Notes: generated by a model not told the origin, from the sequence alone. A stretch of DNA of 64,000 bases from an uncultured Methanosarcinales archaeon (GCA_964647565.1 CAZYIM010000007.1:1-64000), one strand, 5' to 3'. Positions 1 to 10,122 are shown, counted from the first letter of the stretch. Numbers and translations: made by a program.

Positions 1-426
1 GTGTATTGATAAAGCAATTAAAACTTCCCTCCTAAGATCTTCGGGTTCCGATTGAATTGAAAGTTGAGATACTATGGCTTTTTTTCTATTACTATCGCAT
101 CTTCCATGAACTGTATCCCTGCCTAGAACCACAATAGGGAGATCACTAACAGCCAAAACATCTTGATCACCATATATTTCATTTAGATAATCAAAAATAC
201 TTGAACGTCCACAAAAATTATGTGCGGTGAAACCATAAGTTTCTGAAGTGTCAACAAATGAGAAAAGATTAGGATTCGTACTTCTATTAATGTCTTGATG
301 ATTCAGAACATTTACGCCATCATATTTTGATTTGAATCTGAGACCAGTCACCTTGGCGATTTGTTCAAGGGTATGTTTTTTTATTTCTGTGTTTAATGGA
401 ACAATTATTAGTTCTGCCATATTCAT
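1..426 (-). CDS. Archaemetzincin-like Zn metalloprotease, 5' part (runs off window edge; absent from ORF track)
   Basis: Hand translation MNMAELIIVPLN...DVLAVSDLP...VHGRCD...KAIVS...RREVLIALSIH is open to base 1. The layout matches archaemetzincin up to the first His of HExxH. BRE-TATA (ccgaaaagtttataaat) lies at 441-457 on the minus strand. Confidence 0.6.
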   Translation of the reverse strand, partial: MNMAELIIVPLNTEIKKHTLEQIAKVTGLRFKSKYDGVNVLNHQDINRSTNPNLFSFVDTSETYGFTAHNFCGRSSIFDYLNEIYGDQDVLAVSDLPIVVLGRDTVHGRCDSNRKKAIVSQLSIQSEPEDLRREVLIALSIH

Positions 427-552
427 TATGGGTTTAGTTCATTTATAAACTTTTCGGTTTGTAGTCACTTATGAGTGATAATTAAATAGGGAAGTTTGTG
501 AAGGATTTGGTGGTTAGTTAGTGGAAGATGTAGAAGAATTCTGGTGATGTGT

Positions 553-1476
553 TCAATTGGATGTTATTAGCATGGATCCGATTGGTTCTGTTTTTATCAT
601 CTGGTATTTCACTGAGAGCTTGGGGCCGAATAAGCCGTTATCAGCAACAGCGGAGTTCTTAACAGCATCAACAAGATCAACGCCCCTCTCTTCGAGCCAT
701 GCATTTCTTCTTGCAGCAACTTGAAGTGCAGATGTTGTCTCTTGAATCCCTGTCTCAAGGGATGTGGCTTTGACTTCATCATAGAAATCCCGTATCTGTC
801 TTTCCATATAAGGATCGTAGTCGCCTTTAAACCACTTACGAAGCTGGATGATCGGTCCTTGATCCCCATATTTGGGAGTGAAACTCTTTAATGGTCCTGA
901 ACCCTCATGCTCAAGCCATGTTGGGATAGATATTTCCTGATCATCTGCAGGAAAGTCTTTTGTAAATGACGGAAGGCATATTTCATCTGCGATCTCGTAT
1001 AAGGCTTTTTGTTGATTAACTAGATAGCCCATCCCCTCTAGATCAATGATGGCTTGAACGTACGATTCCTCTTGTTTTGGTTTGGACTGGACATCAGTTG
1101 GAAAATAATTCCAGGCATTAATGTTTGTATTGTCTTGAGTCCGGATTGTACCTCCGACGTTCCGATCAATTTCGAGATTTATCACTAATGCTCCTTCTAC
1201 AACATTTATGTATTCCTGGATAAGCTCAGGTGATAGTTCCATGGCCCTGTCTAAAATAAGGCCAAATCCAAACGCGCCAGTAATAAGGCAACCCTCATCA
1301 GAAGCAGGATATCTTTCTGGTGTCAAATATGCAATTCCATTAAGAGATACCTTTGCATTATCCCTGAGATGATCTGAAAGTCGATCAATTGCCCAACTCG
1401 CGTCCAATCTTGTTTCATCGGTATCTCTTTCTTCACCAGTAGGTTTTACCACAATATCAAGGCTTGTAACTTGCAT
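553..1476 (-). CDS. Hypothetical protein (307 aa)
   Basis: Long ORF with TATA-like sequence about 25 nt upstream; no recognised motif. Confidence 0.75.
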   Translation of the reverse strand: MQVTSLDIVVKPTGEERDTDETRLDASWAIDRLSDHLRDNAKVSLNGIAYLTPERYPASDEGCLITGAFGFGLILDRAMELSPELIQEYINVVEGALVINLEIDRNVGGTIRTQDNTNINAWNYFPTDVQSKPKQEESYVQAIIDLEGMGYLVNQQKALYEIADEICLPSFTKDFPADDQEISIPTWLEHEGSGPLKSFTPKYGDQGPIIQLRKWFKGDYDPYMERQIRDFYDEVKATSLETGIQETTSALQVAARRNAWLEERGVDLVDAVKNSAVADNGLFGPKLSVKYQMIKTEPIGSMLITSN

Positions 1477-1618
1477 AAGAATGGGTAATCCGTCTATCTA
1501 TATAAGATTTATTATAAATGCAGAAAATAATAATTTAAATTGGATTATCCTGCCCGCCCTAAAAGCCCCTTCGAAGAATAATTTATGTTGTAGGGTTTTC
1601 GGAGAATTTATAGAAAGC

Positions 1619-1651
1619 TTTAAATACTACTAAGTATTACTTAGAAATACT
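1619..1651 (+). promoter_or_regulatory. TATA box plus AATACT/AGTATT operator repeats of the RHH gene
   Basis: tttaaata at 1619-1626; aatact 1623-1628, agtatt 1633-1638 and aatact 1646-1651 sit directly before the ATG. Confidence 0.55.
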
Positions 1652-1897
1652 ATGCAAGCAGTAAGCCTGAAACTCGAGGATTCTTTTCTACAGGATATTG
1701 AAAAGACCATGAAGCAGCACAGATATACGACCAAGACAGAGTTTATCAGGGAAGCGATAAGGGATAAGATTATCTTTCTGCAGCGGCAAGAAGCCCTACT
1801 AAAGGTCTATGGTGCATCCAAGAGGAAAACGACTGACAAGGAGCTTGAAGAAGCGGGCGAAAAGGCATTCAAAGAACTGGAGAGACAGCTTAAATAA
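1652..1897 (+). CDS. Ribbon-helix-helix (CopG-like) antitoxin/regulator
   Basis: MQAVSLKL...TKTEFIREAIRDKI fits the RHH pattern; adjacent to a PIN gene. Confidence 0.8.
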   Translation: MQAVSLKLEDSFLQDIEKTMKQHRYTTKTEFIREAIRDKIIFLQRQEALLKVYGASKRKTTDKELEEAGEKAFKELERQLK

Positions 1898-2285
1898 TAT
1901 CTTCAGGCAATTTTACCTGTATCAAATCCTTTATTCTTTGGAAATGGAAATCAGTTGTTACGAGCTTGCATTGATTATCCCTGGCAAGAATGGCATGGAG
2001 GGCATCTTTTCTTGGTATGCTTCTGGTTTTTGCAATCTTTTTTGCTTCTTTAAGCTGAATCTTATTGATATGAACCTTTTTGATTAAGTTTACAGGAGAT
2101 AATATCTGCTGTATTTCATTTTTGCTATATCCTAAGATTTTCAGTTCCATCAATGTCAGATCAGAGTAAACAACAGTTTTGTTCTCCCTCATAAGCTTAG
2201 ATAATAACTGGAAAGCAAGCCTCCCATTATTGTTTCTGTTTTCGTAAAGGTCAACCCATATACAGGTATCCAGGTAATATCTCAT
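1890..2285 (-). CDS. PIN-domain (VapC-like) nuclease toxin
   Basis: YLDTCIW, E, DALHAILA and LVTTDFHF match the PIN acidic-residue motifs. Confidence 0.85.
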   Translation of the reverse strand: MRYYLDTCIWVDLYENRNNNGRLAFQLLSKLMRENKTVVYSDLTLMELKILGYSKNEIQQILSPVNLIKKVHINKIQLKEAKKIAKTRSIPRKDALHAILARDNQCKLVTTDFHFQRIKDLIQVKLPEDII

Positions 2286-2397
2286 AGATTATAAATCATT
2301 TGTAAGCTTAAAATAGCTTATTGACGTTTTTTCGGAGGATTTACATAATCTTCCCACCCACCCAACATTTAAATATTCCTCCATATTCCATTTTCTC

Positions 2398-2514
2398 ATG
2401 CGACCGAAGAAGACCATCGCTAAGCTTCAAAGTCTTGTACAGGAGTCAACCACTGACGATAATAAAAAGAGATTCAGGCAGTTCCTTCTCAATACGAGGT
2501 ATAGGAAGAAATAA
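2398..2514 (+). CDS. Small basic protein (38 aa), leaderless candidate
   Basis: MRPKKTIAKLQSLVQESTTDDNKKRFRQFLLNTRYRKK*; tttaaata lies about 25 nt upstream of the ATG. Confidence 0.45.
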   Translation: MRPKKTIAKLQSLVQESTTDDNKKRFRQFLLNTRYRKK

Positions 2515-2572
2515 ATTCCCACCACAATCCTTTTATATTCTAAGGTATTCCTTTTTTATCTCGGGTGATAAC

Positions 2573-3100
2573 ATGTTTGCGGACTATACACAACTTATTA
2601 AGGCTGCGTCTTTCAAAGGTTCTATTGCGTTCGAAGAGAGAAAGGCTGTTCGGTTTTTCGTTGATCAGGGAAAGGCTGAGCCGACTGAATTGTCTCTTCC
2701 GATGTTAAATATGCTCTATATTCCCAGTGTTCCTGATGTCTCAGATGGCTTCATGGGCATGTTGTATAGCAAGGGCTTCTTAGAGTATTCAAAGATGTTT
2801 TCAGCCTTTATGCAATTCGGAGAGATAGAGAACCTGCCTGATGTAAAGGACAAGGAATTCTATGTATATGCTCTGCATCACGGCTTCGACTATGGACATC
2901 ACGGGGAGGCTTGCATAACAGGCCTATTACTAGAATCCGAACATCTGGAGAGTAATTTAGGAAGGCCATTAGATGAAAACTCAGACATGTATAAGCTATT
3001 ATTGACATGGGAGCAGTTCGATACCCCGCAGAACCATGGAGGGGCTATCAAGACCTTTGATAGGCTGGAGCATAAGATAGTGAAATTAGAGATCAGATAG
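2573..3100 (+). CDS. Hypothetical protein
   Basis: Start moved from TTG 2321 to ATG 2573 (MFADY), which follows a GGGTGA RBS and a TATA box. Confidence 0.7.
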   Translation: MFADYTQLIKAASFKGSIAFEERKAVRFFVDQGKAEPTELSLPMLNMLYIPSVPDVSDGFMGMLYSKGFLEYSKMFSAFMQFGEIENLPDVKDKEFYVYALHHGFDYGHHGEACITGLLLESEHLESNLGRPLDENSDMYKLLLTWEQFDTPQNHGGAIKTFDRLEHKIVKLEIR

Positions 3101-5190: not shown

Positions 5191-5679
5191 TCATTTTATA
5201 TGCTCTAGGATCTCCTTGATGCATTCTTCCACTGGCTTATCTATATCTATGACAATTCCATAATCAAACTCAGTGGATTTCTTAAAGACTGCTATTGCTG
5301 CGTCTTTCCCATGGGTTTTCTGCCTATTCTTATCACGCTCTATACAAACATCCAAGGGCGCTTTTAGGGTAAACACATAGTGGGAACAGTCCAACCTCGC
5401 AATCAAGTCCTCAATCTGGGACTTCCAATAGAAGTTGCCGTCAAAGATAACAGGCTTGCCACTATCAAGCACATCTTTAGCCTTATCCACAATTATCTTA
5501 TTGGCTTTTATAAAACTCTTCTGAGAGATATATCCATCTTCCCAATCCCTATCAAGACCATGCTGCTCGAGCACCCTATCTACTGCAAAACACTCCGCAC
5601 CCAGTGATTCGGAAAGCCTTTTTGCTATTGTAGTTTTCCCGCATCCCAGTGGCCCGCGTATTATCAGATAAACGCTCAT
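5191..5679 (-). CDS. P-loop kinase (AAA_33/nucleotide kinase-like)
   Basis: GPLGCGKTT Walker A, VIFDGN, and a CIERDKNR lid motif. Confidence 0.8.
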   Translation of the reverse strand: MSVYLIIRGPLGCGKTTIAKRLSESLGAECFAVDRVLEQHGLDRDWEDGYISQKSFIKANKIIVDKAKDVLDSGKPVIFDGNFYWKSQIEDLIARLDCSHYVFTLKAPLDVCIERDKNRQKTHGKDAAIAVFKKSTEFDYGIVIDIDKPVEECIKEILEHIK

Positions 5680-5730
5680 AGAAGATCATAAAACATATGG
5701 ATTTAAAAGATTACCCTTTCCCGGAATCTC

Positions 5731-5760
5731 TCTGTTTTTTCCCGCTAAAGTTTTATGAAG
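5731..5760 (+). repeat. 30-bp direct repeat, left of TA module
   Basis: tctgttttttcccgctaaagttttatgaag matches 6594-6623 at 28 of 30 positions. Confidence 0.85.
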
Positions 5761-5782
5761 AGTGACTTTTTAATCTGAAAGA

Positions 5783-5869
5783 ATGTATGAATGTGCAATA
5801 GCAAGTGAAAAAAGCCTTGCCAAGGACTGGCTGAGCAAGGAAGAGGAAGAAGCATGGAAAGATCTATGA
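5783..5869 (+). CDS. 28-aa antitoxin-like minigene or remnant
   Basis: MYECAIASEKSLAKDWLSKEEEEAWKDL*. SE.SL.KDW...EE..AW.DL is a typical C-terminus of small antitoxins. Coupled to the next gene by an ATGA overlap. Confidence 0.6.
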   Translation: MYECAIASEKSLAKDWLSKEEEEAWKDL

Positions 5870-6207
5870 ACTTCCAGGATTATGTCGTCAACAGACTGAA
5901 AGCATTTACAAAGAGAGATATCATTTTCACCAGTCATGCTCTGATCAGGATAACGCAAAGGCAGATTGAGAAAAAAGAGATTATAGAAAATCTTTTAAAT
6001 CCGAAAAGGTTAGAATATGCTGTAAAGAAACAATCAAGATCAAGAGATGAAGAGAAATTTGTTTGTTACTTCGCATATACTAAAAAATTATGCCATATGT
6101 ATGTAATAGTTATTAAAAACAACATACTGATTGTTACTGTGGTGAAACTGAATAAGGTCTGGCAGATGACAACTGAAAAAAAGCTGTCGGCGAGGAGATT
6201 TCAATGA
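5866..6207 (+). CDS. DUF4258-like (RelE/BrnT-fold) toxin
   Basis: IIFTSHALIRITQRQI...ILIVTVV pattern; ATGA overlaps at both ends. Confidence 0.75.
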   Translation: MNFQDYVVNRLKAFTKRDIIFTSHALIRITQRQIEKKEIIENLLNPKRLEYAVKKQSRSRDEEKFVCYFAYTKKLCHMYVIVIKNNILIVTVVKLNKVWQMTTEKKLSARRFQ

Positions 6208-6566
6208 TAAGAAAGTTCAATTTTGATTATGATAAAGAAAATGACAGTTTGTTCCTATTCGATCCAAAATCAAAGACAAAAGCCAGCATAGAGATGGATG
6301 ATATTGTTATAGACTTCAACAATAAAAAAGAGGTTTCTGGGATAGAATTGCTGCACGCTACGGCATTCTTCAAAGGACTGGATATTGAAGGAAAGAAAAT
6401 CAGCAAGCAGATGCTTAAAGAAATTACCCAATGTAAGATCGAAATCATACCGAAAAATAATTTCATTATGATTAGGTTCATGCTGCAGTTTAAATCAAGA
6501 AAACAATTGACAACACCTGTTTATGTACCTTCTGTTCAAGAACCGAGCCCCGCTTTAACAGCATAA
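6204..6566 (+). CDS. DUF2283-like antitoxin
   Basis: YDKENDSLFL...IVIDF...VSGIELLHA signature. Confidence 0.8.
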   Translation: MIRKFNFDYDKENDSLFLFDPKSKTKASIEMDDIVIDFNNKKEVSGIELLHATAFFKGLDIEGKKISKQMLKEITQCKIEIIPKNNFIMIRFMLQFKSRKQLTTPVYVPSVQEPSPALTA

Positions 6567-6593
6567 AATTGAACCCGGAACACTCTAAACCTC

Positions 6594-6623
6594 TTTGTTT
6601 TTTCCCACTAAAGTTTTATGAAG
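6594..6623 (+). repeat. 30-bp direct repeat, right of TA module
   Basis: tttgttttttcccactaaagttttatgaag matches 5731-5760 at 28 of 30 positions. Confidence 0.85.
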
Positions 6624-6770
6624 CTTTTTTTCTAAGATTATTCTTGGCTATATTTATATAATAATCCGGGATTCTTTTCTTCATACGGATATAGATATTG
6701 TGAAAAATAAGGTAAATATGGGCTTTTTTCATAACTTTTAAATATGACTTATTAAACCTTATTCTTAAAG

Positions 6771-6854
6771 ATGAAACATTTAGCAAGCAAACGTAAATTT
6801 TCTAAGTTGTCTTTGCTAGATAGCATCCTGATTTGCTTCTGCTTTTATTGTTAA
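6771..6854 (+). CDS. Putative leader peptide (27 aa) of the aromatic amino-acid operon
   Basis: MKHLASKRKFSKLSLLDSILICFCFYC*; ttttaaata at 6736-6744 places the transcription start near this ATG. Confidence 0.55.
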   Translation: MKHLASKRKFSKLSLLDSILICFCFYC

Positions 6855-6929
6855 GCCCTGGGTTTGATTTTTAATCCTTGAGGCTCCTGACAAACATTTT
6901 TGTTGGGATTCTAAACCCGGGCGCGGCTT
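6855..6929 (+). promoter_or_regulatory. Structured 5' leader (attenuator-like)
   Basis: gccc(t)gggtttg 6855-6866 pairs with taaacccgggc 6912-6922. An inner stem pairs 6885-6894 with 6899-6908. Confidence 0.55.
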
Positions 6930-6966
6930 CAAGTGATTAATACAAATAACAACGAGGAGGATAAAA

Positions 6967-7992
6967 ATGATAATTGTATTAAAACCAGATGCACTGGAGG
7001 AGGACATAAAGCACCTGATGGAGATCATTGAGGAAAAGGGATTTAAGCCATTCAAGTCAGAAGGTGAGCTTAGGACACTGATCCATGTGATTGGCGATGT
7101 TCGGGATGATTCGCCGACACTTTTCAAGTCGATGCGCTGTGTTGAGAAAGTGATGAGGGTATTGAAGCCATACAAGCTTGCCAGCAGGGAGCATCATGAC
7201 CAGACAACCATAGTCGATGTTGGTGATGTTAAGATTGGCAATGGCGAGTTTGTGGTCATCGCAGGCCCTTGTTCTGTTGAAAATGAAGAGCAGATAATGG
7301 CCACAGCCAGGATATTGAAGAAAATGGGCGTCAGGATCATGAGGGCATCTGCATTCAAGCCAAGGACCTCGCCTTACGATTTCCAGGGCCTTGGCCTGGA
7401 AGGATTGAAACTCTTAAAGAAAGTCCGCGATGAGGTCGGTTTGCTGGTTGAGACAGAGGTCATGGATGTCCGCGATGTTAAGGTCGCTGCTGAATATGTC
7501 GATATCCTCAGGGTTGGCGCCAGGAACATGCAGAACTTTGACCTGTTAAAGGAGATGGGCAAGGTCAAGTTGCCTGTAATCTTAAAAAGAGGGATGTCTG
7601 CAACTGTCAAGGAGTTCATCATGGCTGCAGAGTATATATTATCCAGCGGAAATCCAAATGTCATCTTATGTGAACGAGGTATAAGGACATATGAGTCTGC
7701 CTACAGAAACACGCTCGATATCACTGCAGTCGCACTGCTAAAAAAAGAGACTCATCTGCCTGTGATTGTGGATCCAAGCCATGCTGCAGGGGATAGAGAA
7801 CTCATAACACCTCTTTCAAAGGCATCTGTTGCTGTTGGTGCAGACGGGATCTTAATCGAGATGCATCCAAATCCAGAGATTGCATTAAGTGATGGTGCAC
7901 AATCCTTGTATCCTGACCAATTGGAAAATCTTTTAAGTGAACTTAAAATTGTATGTGATGCATTAGGCAAGGTGTTAAAAGATGGAACTTGA
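6967..7992 (+). CDS. aroF: DAHP synthase, type I-beta with N-terminal ACT-like regulatory domain
   Basis: IAGPCSVE, FKPRTSPYDFQG, GARNMQNF, CERGIRT, VDPSH and LSDG motifs; GAGGAGG RBS. Confidence 0.95.
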   Translation: MIIVLKPDALEEDIKHLMEIIEEKGFKPFKSEGELRTLIHVIGDVRDDSPTLFKSMRCVEKVMRVLKPYKLASREHHDQTTIVDVGDVKIGNGEFVVIAGPCSVENEEQIMATARILKKMGVRIMRASAFKPRTSPYDFQGLGLEGLKLLKKVRDEVGLLVETEVMDVRDVKVAAEYVDILRVGARNMQNFDLLKEMGKVKLPVILKRGMSATVKEFIMAAEYILSSGNPNVILCERGIRTYESAYRNTLDITAVALLKKETHLPVIVDPSHAAGDRELITPLSKASVAVGADGILIEMHPNPEIALSDGAQSLYPDQLENLLSELKIVCDALGKVLKDGT

Positions 7993-8245
7993 AAAAATCA
8001 GGGAAAATATCAATATTGTTGATACTAAGTTAGTCAGATTGCTTGCTGAAAGAGACGCTCTTATCAAGGAGATTACGCCAATAAAGAAAAAACATAACTT
8101 GGCCATATCTGATCATAGTCGGGAAAACCAGCTTTTGGCCAATGTACAGGCTTTGGCGAGCGAAAGGGGTCTTGATCCAGACTATACCGAGTCCCTGTTC
8201 AGGCTAATCCTTGAAGAATCTAAGAGGCTGCAGAGATGGAGATAG
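7982..8245 (+). CDS. Chorismate mutase (AroQ type)
   Basis: LEKIRENINIVD..LV.LLAER...K...D.SRE...ES..LQ pattern; overlaps both neighbouring genes. Confidence 0.9.
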   Translation: MELEKIRENINIVDTKLVRLLAERDALIKEITPIKKKHNLAISDHSRENQLLANVQALASERGLDPDYTESLFRLILEESKRLQRWR

Positions 8246-8973
8246 GCATTATAGGTTTTGGCAGGTTTGGAGAGTTATTGGTCAAAAACCTGATAGATGA
8301 TTTTGATGTTTTTGTTTATGACAAGGAAGACAAAGTATCCCTAATAGAGTCTTTTGGAGCAAAACCTATAGGCCTTAAAGAGATCTGCCAGAAGGATATT
8401 GTAATCCCAAGCGTTCCAATATCTAATTTTAAATCGGTTATTGAACAGATTGCAGATAAGATTAAGGACGGCGCTTTGGTCATGGATGTCTGTTCAGTAA
8501 AGGAGTATCCTGCTAACTGCATGAAAGAGCTGCTTCCAACAACAGTAGGGATTTTGGCAACACATCCCATGTTTGGTCCAGATAGTGCTGCAAAAAGTGT
8601 AACTGGTAGGAAGATGGTCCTCTGCCCAATACGTATTGACGACAAATTATATAGCCAAGTGAAGGAGTACCTTGCAGGTAAACAGCTACATCTAATTGAG
8701 ATGACTGCACAAGAGCATGACAAGCAGGTTGCAGAATCACAATTGTTAACTCATTTTGTTGGCAGGTCCTTAATAGAATTTTGTCCTGAGAATGTTGAGA
8801 TTGGCACAGAAGGATACGCAAGGTTAAAGAACATACTTGGAGTTGTGCAGAATGATAGCTGGCAATTATTCGAGGATATGAATAACTATAATCGTTTTGC
8901 AAAGCAAGTCAGGAAGAGATTCCTGGATGCAGCTGAATGGGTTGATAAAAAGGTTAAAAAGGACAGAAAATAA
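8236..8973 (+). CDS. tyrA: Prephenate/arogenate dehydrogenase
   Basis: GFGRFG Rossmann motif, DVCSVK, THPMFGP and EHD...SQ.LTH. Confidence 0.9.
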   Translation: MEIGIIGFGRFGELLVKNLIDDFDVFVYDKEDKVSLIESFGAKPIGLKEICQKDIVIPSVPISNFKSVIEQIADKIKDGALVMDVCSVKEYPANCMKELLPTTVGILATHPMFGPDSAAKSVTGRKMVLCPIRIDDKLYSQVKEYLAGKQLHLIEMTAQEHDKQVAESQLLTHFVGRSLIEFCPENVEIGTEGYARLKNILGVVQNDSWQLFEDMNNYNRFAKQVRKRFLDAAEWVDKKVKKDRK

Positions 8974-9036: not shown

Positions 9037-10122
9037 ATGATCAAGCTACCGAAGTTCAAGATCAGGGATCTAGAGATCAATCTTATACAGGGAGGTATGG
9101 GCGTTGGTATTTCTGGCAGTAAGCTTGCAAGTGCTGTTGCAAACTGCGGCGGTGCTGGAATCATTGCCAGTGTCGGACTCGGAGGATTGAAGAACTATCC
9201 TGGGAATTATATTAAGGCAAACAAGGACGCCCTGCGTGATGAGATTCGGGCTGCAAGAAAGATGTCTAATGGAGTCTTCGGCGTCAATATAATGACTGTC
9301 CTGACAGATTATATGCACTTGGTCGAGACTGCTGCCGAGGAAAAAGTCGATATGATAATTTCAGGGGCAGGCATTGCCAGAGACCTTCCAAAACTAGTCG
9401 GAAATAAGGATATAAGCTTAGTACCCATTGTTTCAGATGTAAAGGTTGCAAGATTAATAACCAGGGCATGGAGCAAATATAATAAGGCTCCAGACGCATT
9501 CATCGTAGAGGGTCCAAAGGCAGGTGGGCATCTGGCATATAAATATGAGGATCTGGTTAACAATACAGCGCCTCGTCTAGAGGGTCTTGCCAAAGATGTG
9601 ATTGATTTTGCAAACCATGCTGATAATTTCCCCAGCCCTGTGCCTGTAATAGTTGCAGGAGGCATATATACTGGAAAGGATATTGCCTATCACCAAAGAC
9701 TCGGGGCTGCAGGGGTTCAGATGGCAACGAGATTTGTGACAACACAGGAATGTGATGCAAATGAGAAGTTCAAACGACAGTATCTTGATGCGACTAAAGA
9801 GGACATACTTATCATCAGGAGTCCTGTGGGCCTGCCTGGAAGAGCCATAAGAACTCCCTTTTTAGATAGGGTCATGGAAGGTGAAGAGATCAAGTTCAGA
9901 TGCAATTACAAATGTCTTAGATCGTGTAGTCCAAAAGAATCCCCCTATTGTATTGCAGAAGCATTGGTTGATGCACAACAGGGCGATTTTTACAGGGGTT
10001 TTGCATTTGCTGGCTCAAATGCCTATAAGAGCACAAAAAAGTCCTGCCTTGATGAATCTGGGAATTTTATCACTGTCAAGACATTGATGCAAAGACTTTC
10101 TGATGAATATCATGCAGCCTGA
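9037..10122 (+). CDS. Nitronate monooxygenase/FabK-family flavin oxidoreductase
   Basis: IQGGMGVG, VEGPKAGGH, AGGI, GVQMATRF and SPVGLPGRA motifs, plus a Cys cluster. Confidence 0.9.
   Translation: MIKLPKFKIRDLEINLIQGGMGVGISGSKLASAVANCGGAGIIASVGLGGLKNYPGNYIKANKDALRDEIRAARKMSNGVFGVNIMTVLTDYMHLVETAAEEKVDMIISGAGIARDLPKLVGNKDISLVPIVSDVKVARLITRAWSKYNKAPDAFIVEGPKAGGHLAYKYEDLVNNTAPRLEGLAKDVIDFANHADNFPSPVPVIVAGGIYTGKDIAYHQRLGAAGVQMATRFVTTQECDANEKFKRQYLDATKEDILIIRSPVGLPGRAIRTPFLDRVMEGEEIKFRCNYKCLRSCSPKESPYCIAEALVDAQQGDFYRGFAFAGSNAYKSTKKSCLDESGNFITVKTLMQRLSDEYHAA

Follow-up and report, generated by a model that had tools for sequence, protein, structure and literature searches.

A candidate family of ribosome-mediated leader-peptide attenuators upstream of DAHP synthase genes in Woesearchaeota-like archaea

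Can an archaeal operon for aromatic amino-acid synthesis be controlled by a ribosome that reads a short leader peptide? This question is raised by a 64,000-nt stretch of DNA from an uncultured Methanosarcinales archaeon (GCA_964647565.1, CAZYIM010000007.1:1-64000; hereafter, the window). An initial annotation of the window placed a TATA box at 6736–6744 and a 27-codon upstream open reading frame (uORF) at 6771–6854 ahead of genes for DAHP synthase, chorismate mutase, and TyrA, and proposed that the supply of phenylalanine (Phe) and tyrosine (Tyr) is sensed through translation of the uORF. Both elements were found at these positions (6736–6744 reads TTTTAAATA), and the three downstream genes were confirmed by Pfam. 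Ribosome-mediated attenuation is a textbook mechanism in bacteria; to our knowledge, no archaeal counterpart has been described. Our analysis suggests that the window leader (L001) is probably a member of a family of ribosome-mediated leader-peptide attenuators in Woesearchaeota-like archaea. Four computed features carry this reading: a family of uORFs ending in aromatic codons, the spacing of these uORFs from an archaeal promoter, a covarying helix adjacent to the uORF stop codon, and an alternative between two stems, A and B. The genome that contains the window (G000; 2.68 Mb in 86 contigs, 87% complete) encodes TATA-binding protein (TBP), and the nearest named relatives of its DAHP synthase are from Candidatus Woesearchaeota metagenome-assembled genomes, both of which support an archaeal setting.

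uORFs with terminal aromatic codons upstream of DAHP synthase

The DAHP synthase protein of the window was searched against 61 genomes, 23 of which gave a match at E ≤ 0.001, and against 401 genomes of the same archaeal order, 91 of which matched at E ≤ 1e-40; the latter tally counts three genomes that supplied no upstream DNA. Two distant paralogues (L020 and L026), a second record of the L006 locus (L024), two loci without upstream DNA (L005 and L075), and one with only 134 nt of it (L035) were dropped before counting. The 85 upstream regions kept, of up to 400 nt each, still hold second tandem copies, operon-internal genes, and a few near-duplicates. Each region was scored by the highest number of Phe, Tyr, or tryptophan (Trp) codons (F/Y/W) among the last eight codons of any ATG-started ORF of 8–60 codons. 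The scores formed two peaks (0 in 13 regions, 1 in 21, 2 in 7, 3 in 7, 4 in 4, 5 in 8, 6 in 21, and 7 in 4). A uORF with at least five F/Y/W codons among its last eight was present in 33 of the 85 regions but on no reverse strand (0 of 85) and in 2 of 1700 shuffles; across the whole genome of the window, this score was reached by 65 of 34,813 small ORFs. The enrichment expected of leader-peptide attenuators is thus seen at the level of the family, with the window copy (three of eight) as a weak case.

The initial annotation had named the absence of the uORF, or of its Phe and Tyr codons, from homologous operons as the observation that would count against its proposal. This comparison favors the proposal: besides the 33 of 85 regions, seven of the ten closest orthologues (65–72% identity) have an aromatic uORF (L003, L029–L033, and L039), and three do not (L002, L034, and L035). 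In relatives with the uORF, five to seven of the last eight codons are aromatic, compared with three in the window. The distance from the uORF stop to the DAHP synthase ATG is 112 nt in the window (stop codon TAA at 6852–6854) and mostly 103–122 nt in the closest relatives (L003, 115; L029, 116; L030, 104; L031, 122; L032, 108; L033, 103; and L039, 74 or 122 in two listings). The N-terminal parts of the peptides are unrelated between leaders; the ends read, for example, ...NFYYYFFS, ...GYFTFYFFN, ...YFRYFYFYFA, ...DYFAYFYFYFS, ...TFYFYFW, ...GYFYFFW, and ...FISFRFFW. Among 29 leaders that are not near-duplicates, the last aromatic codon is the final codon in 20 and the penultimate one in nine, and F/Y/W codons occupy 83–97% of positions −2 to −5 in the relatives, both of which are partly built into the selection. 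In an unbiased sliding window, the aromatic run still ended within five codons of the stop in 30 of 32 leaders.

These uORFs also share a promoter arrangement. A match of at least 7/8 to TTTWWATA, which we take to be the TATA box consensus, lies 30–36 nt before the in-frame uORF ATG in 29 of 34 leaders (8/8 in 22), usually with an A-rich stretch just upstream; the tightness of this spacing is slightly flattered by the search, which covered 24–39 nt and broke ties toward 31. From the chosen ATG, the peptides are mostly 20–27 residues long. With this spacing, transcripts would begin on the ATG itself or only a few bases from it, suggesting that the uORFs are leaderless and without a Shine–Dalgarno sequence of their own, like the leaderless sensory ORFs of mycobacteria. 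The window, with its spacing of 34 nt and a genome encoding TBP, fits this arrangement, in agreement with the leaderless start from an archaeal promoter proposed initially.

Another explanation would be that there is no sensor at all: the T-rich tract could serve as a signal in DNA or RNA (an upstream terminator, for instance, or an operator for a protein) or could encode a small hydrophobic peptide, with the reading frame incidental, since T-rich archaeal terminators read as Phe codons. The TATA box, however, sits upstream of the T-rich tract, TAT/TAC and TGG codons lie in frame with TTT/TTC, the stop follows the tract within 0–1 codon in 29 of 29 leaders, and a small peptide with a role of its own is at odds with the unconserved N-terminal parts. 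Runs of Leu, Ile, and Thr codons, moreover, precede the cognate synthetase genes (see below). We regard this explanation as very improbable.

DAHP synthase feeds all three aromatic pathways, and mixed Phe, Tyr, and Trp codons are suited to it for this reason. Of 12 leader-bearing loci, 10 have 3-dehydroquinate (DHQ) synthase after DAHP synthase, and one has a trpC homologue (indole-3-glycerol phosphate synthase) there. A link between leader Trp codons and the content of the operon was considered and dropped, as nearly all leader-bearing operons consist of DAHP synthase and then DHQ synthase. In four loci (L008, L042, L047, and L053), DAHP synthase stands directly behind a transketolase-like (C-terminal-part) gene and has no uORF of its own, as read from the translated upstream DNA; their leader, if there is one, would sit farther upstream. 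Where DAHP synthase genes are duplicated in tandem (L006/L024, L050, and L051), the aromatic uORF precedes the first copy only. One leader, L016, has two aromatic uORFs, MPKRQFISFRFFW and a second frame ending in ...SLYFFRYFHFWRQ.

Helices at the uORF stop codon and the possible off step

Pairing immediately downstream of the stop codon was assessed by a swap test of 32 leaders. The first 16 nt after the stop paired with their own next 90 nt with a mean energy of −12.58 kcal/mol, compared with −8.18 kcal/mol when the downstream regions of the other 31 leaders were used, and none of 20,000 permutations reached the observed mean. In each of the seven leaders of the window clade, the cognate partner was among the top two of 32. 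When leaders were folded from 24 nt upstream of the stop, the mean pairing probability peaked at 0.78–0.83 at +4 to +11. In 30 of 32 leaders, the first helix starts −2 to +6 nt from the stop, an observation of little weight because the folded segment began at the stop and was uncontrolled.

In the window, the large stem that the initial annotation had described from 6855 (6855–66/6912–22) was predicted in nascent-RNA folds: RNA from 6852 to 6923 or 6930 paired 6855–58 with 6919–22, 6860–65 with 6913–18, and 6881–83 with 6910–12 around an inner hairpin, at −25.4 to −26.5 kcal/mol. The short complementarities noted within the uORF (6781–91 with 6813–18 or 6832–38) are present in the sequence, as are the inner pairings called mutually exclusive, but the conserved switch is not formed by the latter. 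It lies between stem A (segments 1 and 3) and stem B (segments 2 and 4; Table 1), partly outside the region first described. The arms of the two stems are interleaved with linkers of 1–5 nt, and by our reading the stems could not coexist at full length. Stem A is predicted to form first, in nascent RNA ending at 6923–6930; once 6940 has been transcribed, stem B reaches −24.7 kcal/mol, or −27.3 kcal/mol with a small extra hairpin, compared with −25.4 kcal/mol for stem A.

The same choice is predicted in close relatives. The unconstrained fold is a long stem A in L039, L030, L031, L032, and L033, in which segment 1 joins segment 3 about 55 nt downstream. Masking of the stop codon and the following 12 nt, as by a stalled ribosome, is predicted to convert A into B in L039, L030, L031, and L032 and, in the window (6852–6866 masked), to leave B as the only large stem. 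No such conversion on masking was predicted in L033 or L029. Mutually exclusive helices are thus predicted in the window and in L039, L030, L031, and L032.

Compensatory changes were found in these helices. For stem A with the inner hairpin, 93.8% of the cells were paired in four aligned leaders, and 5 of 23 pairs had changed on both sides, a result reached by 1 of 500 shuffles, in an alignment that comprised only these four sequences and had been fitted to the structure. A covariance model (R1) built from L001 and L039 retrieved L030 and L031 and missed L032, L033, and L029, and the formal pair count therefore rests on four sequences. The MAFFT leader alignments A1–A3 were rejected because the helices were out of register (6–7 of 14 stem B pairs in the non-reference rows of A3), and stem B was likewise out of register in alignment A7 (5–6 of 14 pairs); therefore, no pair counts were taken from A1–A3, and none were made for stem B. 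A compensatory exchange in stem B is visible: CUUAAG:CUUAAG in L039 corresponds to CUUGAG:CUUCAAG in the window, an A-U to G-C exchange, in leader RNAs that are 86% identical (the proteins are 66% identical). The palindrome CTTAAG, present in segments 2 and 4 of L039 and L030 and at least once in L031, could also bind a dimeric protein, as expected if the tract were an operator and not a sensor. Against this, L032 builds stem B from wholly different segments 2 and 4 that are complementary to each other and non-palindromic.

On these grounds, we infer a mechanism in which the uORF is translated, the ribosome stalls on it, and the stall sets the direction of the switch, with premature termination as the off step. 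The TATA box and the transcription factor B recognition element (BRE) would start the transcript at or a few bases from the uORF ATG, so that the uORF would be translated leaderless up to its terminal Phe and Tyr codons (with Trp in many relatives). When charged Phe, Tyr, or Trp tRNA is scarce, the ribosome would stall on the last codons, and its footprint would cover the stop and about 12 nt, that is, segment 1. With stem A (1:3) blocked, stem B (2:4) would form in the window clade, and the polymerase or the message would proceed to DAHP synthase, chorismate mutase, and TyrA; in the numerous relatives with only one hairpin, no helix would form under the stalled ribosome. With a good supply, the ribosome would leave, stem A would form once segment 3 had been made, and expression would fall. 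In the most likely off step, the polymerase would terminate prematurely in the U-rich stretch, a few bases past the helix.

The sequence flanking the helix is consistent with termination. Past its 3′ end, C or A predominates at +1 and +2, the U fraction is 0.37–0.57 at +4 to +11 (background, 0.28; n = 30), and an A-rich stretch follows. This layout, a short spacer and an interrupted U tract, resembles that of an intrinsic terminator. Runs of at least four U residues after the helix, seen by eye in about a third of the leaders, were uninformative in AT-rich sequence and were replaced by this positional profile.

The same sensor could instead act through a factor or through decay, if a ribosome-free, U-rich leader were attacked by aCPSF1/FttA or by a 5′–3′ exonuclease and the stalled ribosome or stem B hid the target. 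The helix has no canonical oligo-U directly at its foot but is followed by U-enriched sequence, stem B sequesters exactly the U-rich tract in the window clade, and polarity and FttA-dependent termination are known in Archaea. An intrinsic mechanism, however, would account equally well for a covarying helix placed tightly against the stop codon; we consider the factor or decay route unlikely.

Somewhat less likely still is a translational output of the same sensor, in which the stalled ribosome would refold the leader and open the Shine–Dalgarno sequence and start codon of DAHP synthase, in the manner of the mycobacterial polycysteine uORFs or ermC. An AU-rich inverted repeat brackets the Shine–Dalgarno-like sequence and the ATG in the window, its 5′ arm sharing 4 nt with the end of segment 4, and, by inspection, the sequence past the helix, first C/A and then rich in U (often resembling CAUUGUU), might pair with an A-rich region whose last bases are AUG. 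On masking, the initiation region was predicted to become more accessible by over 0.05 in 7 of the 32 leaders (from 0.18 to 0.68 in L039, by 0.23 in L029, and by 0.22 in L032); it became less so in one, 24 were unchanged, and the window stayed at 0.76 in both states. As a general mechanism, translational occlusion was therefore rejected as weakly supported: most leaders are not predicted to free a ribosome-binding site on masking. Termination past stem A remains the route that we favor.

Similar uORFs in the genome and in other systems

Do other genes of this genome have such leaders? The genome was scanned for uORFs with a TATA box 29–35 nt upstream and a terminal run of one residue. The leucyl-tRNA synthetase (LeuRS) gene (L254, G000:C4:69200-72300; LeuRS at 325–3015 by Pfam) is preceded, at 70 nt, by a leaderless uORF rich in Leu codons (MQTDCYNYLLALLLLV), which has a TATA box 30 nt upstream of it and is followed by a stop-adjacent hairpin, AGACCCU/AGGGUCU, and a U6 run. 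Leu-rich uORFs (at least four of the last eight codons) precede leuS in 3 of 28 loci, including L283 and L285; they are uncommon, and no other amino acid reaches this score. A leaderless Ile-rich uORF (MATVIAKELKTIASIISIIIM) lies 68 nt before the isoleucyl-tRNA synthetase (IleRS; Pfam) gene (L255, G000:C1:118400-121950). Ile-rich uORFs (at least four of the last ten codons) precede ileS in 5 of 29 loci, compared with one locus each for Phe and Leu and none for the other 17 amino acids. These locus counts therefore indicate that the device is used sporadically but specifically. Without the TATA filter, the scan also found a uORF ending in ...LASSTTTTTTI, with six consecutive Thr codons, about 300 nt before the likely ATG of a threonyl-tRNA synthetase gene (Pfam; L256, G000:C48:250-2750, minus strand).

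Several further observations belong to these loci. Ile-rich uORFs before ileS also occur in L290, L305, and L316 (e.g. MNSKAGLEICRIIASAIIISIIIIM), and the order has two types of IleRS, one with 61–70% identity to that of L255 in six genomes and one with 35–44% in the rest. In L256, UCUUUUCAUUGUUC directly follows the stop of the Thr-rich uORF. A leaderless Val-rich uORF (MSTTNLISIVLILVVVVLV), with a hairpin, GCAAGGCC/GGCTTTGC, at its stop, lies 71 nt before a 121-residue ORF without a Pfam match (L257, G000:C15:4900-5700). A second aromatic uORF (MSKYFNSYFSYFY), with a TATA-like box upstream, is found in L258 (G000:C11:33300-35500, minus strand), 71 nt before genes whose products, a D-2-hydroxyacid dehydrogenase and an aminotransferase of class V, may catalyze the last steps of Phe and Tyr synthesis.

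We tentatively raise the possibility, to which we give somewhat less than even weight, that amino-acid sensing by the ribosome is genome-wide here: leaderless uORFs with terminal runs of cognate codons, whose stop abuts a helix controlling premature termination, would govern the entry enzyme of the shikimate pathway as well as leuS, ileS, and thrS. This would be the first attenuation in Archaea to be coupled to translation and dependent on RNA structure, doing the job of the T-boxes and leader peptides of bacteria.

A search of the main text of non-subscription papers found no paper on leader-peptide attenuation in Archaea; passages of a 2026 termination review and of a Methanosarcina ribosome-profiling paper mention uORFs in general terms only. 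The archaeal leaders resemble those of E. coli pheL/pheA, pheM/pheST, trpL, and thrL in that a short ORF ends in a run of codons for the pathway product, mutually exclusive helices are placed for a choice by a stalled ribosome, and the genes that follow are biosynthetic operons and, in the genome of the window, aminoacyl-tRNA synthetase genes. They differ from bacterial attenuators in their TATA/BRE promoter and in a uORF that is leaderless and lacks its own Shine–Dalgarno sequence. Their sensing codons are the very last ones, with the helix beginning at the stop codon, and instead of the bacterial 1:2, 2:3, and 3:4 scheme there are two helices (1:3 or 2:4) or a single one. The canonical stem-plus-oligo-U terminator is missing, Phe, Tyr, and Trp codons are mixed, and there is no Rfam match.

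A leaderless sensory short ORF as first cistron has a parallel in mycobacteria, where, according to Canestrari et al. (bioRxiv 10.1101/834739), pausing on the codons of one amino acid in polycysteine short ORFs controls the downstream operon, several such loci form a "ribulon", and the stalled ribosome unblocks a sequestered ribosome-binding site, which makes the output translational. In contrast to that bacterial system as described there, a rise in accessibility of the archaeal initiation region is predicted for just 7 of the 32 leaders, the window not among them. The window uORF has three Cys codons, whereas its relatives lack these.

Bacterial DAHP synthases of the same type (50–54% identical; Clostridiales, Calditrichota, and others) sometimes have F/Y-rich short ORFs too, 67–151 nt upstream (e.g. 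MNKKFYAFAYNYYYYFTNVK in L214, as well as L233, L216, L227, and L197). They are rarer than in the archaeal order, with 3 of 77 named genome records reaching five of the last eight codons compared with 33 of 85, and their aromatic run often ends 2–4 codons before the stop. Among metagenome contigs with this DAHP synthase type, most of which look bacterial, 5 of 77 reach the score; relatives from metagenomes and from across GTDB are mostly bacterial and added few archaeal leaders. The leader idea may have travelled with the DAHP synthase gene, and the sensing system as a whole may have been acquired with bacterial-type genes and refitted to an archaeal promoter.

If the conserved archaeal family is what it appears to be, transcription–translation coupling would be used for gene control in Archaea, RNA hairpins could matter for archaeal termination or message fate, and DPANN archaea with small genomes would regulate biosynthesis and tRNA charging by cis-acting RNA and not by protein regulators. 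For the annotation of regulation in uncultured archaea, the arrangement offers a simple signature that can be searched for: a TATA box followed some 30 nt later by an ATG, then about 24 codons with a terminal run of one kind, a stop, and a helix.

The window copy and its surroundings

How firmly does the window leader itself belong to this family? Its uORF has Phe at codons 23 (6837–39) and 25 (6843–45) and Tyr at codon 26 (6846–48), interleaved with Cys at codons 22 (6834–36), 24 (6840–42), and 27 (6849–51). The fold of 6850–6950 has a z score of −2.67, with 4 of 200 shuffles as good. The significance of the leader comes from conservation in its relatives and not from the window copy alone, which is marginal.

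Several observations, to which the small, structure-fitted covariation alignment has to be added, weigh against attenuation by a ribosome-read leader. At the level of the family, 52 of the 85 regions have no F/Y/W-rich uORF, among them L002, the only relative to share the gene order DAHP synthase, chorismate mutase, TyrA, whose 80-nt spacer holds no uORF; in addition, the leaders compared are kin and not independent, and the tests therefore overstate significance. Taken alone, the aromatic score of the window uORF is at chance level (3 F/Y/W in the last eight codons, reached by 249 of 1700 dinucleotide shuffles of upstream regions), and three Cys codons accompany it. For the whole leader (6765–6970), the fold does not differ significantly from those of shuffles (z = −1.31, matched by 23 of 200). 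The unconstrained minimum-energy fold in the window already shows stem B, which makes the default state unclear. After stem A, the window has no oligo-U but only GCGGCUUCAAGUG. Archaeal intrinsic termination, furthermore, is described as depending on oligo-T and not on hairpins, and a hairpin-controlled terminator would therefore be unusual. The caveats attached to the initial annotation (the scarcity of aromatic codons, the Cys codons between them, and the lack of a hairpin-polyU terminator) thus hold for the window copy.

The window copy is the weakest, a degenerate, member of the family, and it could be a decaying relic of a real one, with Cys codons in place of former Phe and Tyr codons, a weakened U tract, and lost or leaky control. 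The low aromatic count compared with the relatives would follow from such decay; a single base separates each TGC or TGT from a codon for Phe or Tyr (TTC or TAT), the minimum-energy fold already contains stem B, the tract that follows stem A is a weak one, and in L002, which has the same operon, the leader is gone entirely. Nevertheless, the TATA box, the length of the uORF, the abutment of stop and helix, both stems, and their near-equal energies are intact, and the high identity of the leader RNA to that of L039 speaks against decay, as does E. coli trpL, in which two regulatory codons are enough. We therefore judge a relic to be improbable and consider it fairly likely that the window leader is functional as a member of the attenuator family; this copy may be tuned or leaky, or it may be heading for loss as in L002.

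Table 1. Positions of leader and operon features in the window
Feature	Position	Strand	Basis or remark
BRE-like A-rich stretch, tcataact	just 5′ of the TATA box (6737–6744)	+	
TATA box, TTTAAATA	6737–6744	+	8/8 match to TTTWWATA, 34 nt 5′ of the uORF ATG
Leader ORF, presumably leaderless, 27 codons and TAA, MKHLASKRKFSKLSLLDSILICFCFYC	6771–6854	+	position and length fit the family
Putative sensing codons, C-F-C-F-Y-C (TGC TTC TGC TTT TAT TGT)	6834–6851	+	
Segment 1, 5′ arm of stem A	6855–6865	+	G+C-rich, begins at the first base after the stop; nascent-RNA folds, swap test, covariation
Segment 2, 5′ arm of stem B, inside the loop of stem A	6871–6884	+	folds, compensatory change relative to L039
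Inner hairpin (6885–94:6899–6908), common to the A and B states	6885–6908	+	folds, covariation (helix 3)
Segment 3, 3′ arm of stem A	6913–6922	+	nascent folds, covariation
Segment 4, 3′ arm of stem B and pyrimidine/U-containing tract after stem A, GCUUCAAGUGAUUAA	6926–6940	+	folds
AU-rich inverted repeat, 15 nt, 87% complementary, Shine–Dalgarno and DAHP synthase ATG in its loop	6937–51/6968–82	+	
Shine–Dalgarno-like GAGGAGG before the DAHP synthase ATG (6967)	6954–6960	+	sequence
DAHP synthase, 341 residues, DAHP_synth_1 and N-terminal ferredoxin-like domain	6967–7992	+	Pfam
Chorismate mutase, type II, CM_2, overlaps the DAHP synthase end	7982–8245	+	Pfam
Prephenate dehydrogenase-like gene, PDH_N/TyrA, overlaps the chorismate mutase end	8236–8973	+	Pfam
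NMO-family gene, after a 64-nt gap	9037–10122		Pfam
DUF4258/DUF2283 gene pair, upstream of the leader	5854–6566		Pfam

An Rfam cmscan of 5500–8000 at E values up to 10 returned only two chance-level matches, both within the DAHP synthase gene; Rfam leader families (Phe_leader and others), T-boxes, and riboswitches were unmatched, and a tRNA scan found no tRNA. No RNA sequencing run was listed as containing this DNA. Upstream of the leader, the DUF4258/DUF2283 pair is flanked by a 36-nt direct repeat (5725–5760 and 6588–6623, 92% identical, core CTCTNTGTTTTTTCCCRCTAAAGTTTTATGAAG), of which the 2.68-Mb assembly has only these two copies, with up to six mismatches allowed. The two-copy repeat suggests that both genes entered as a cassette immediately ahead of the leader promoter.

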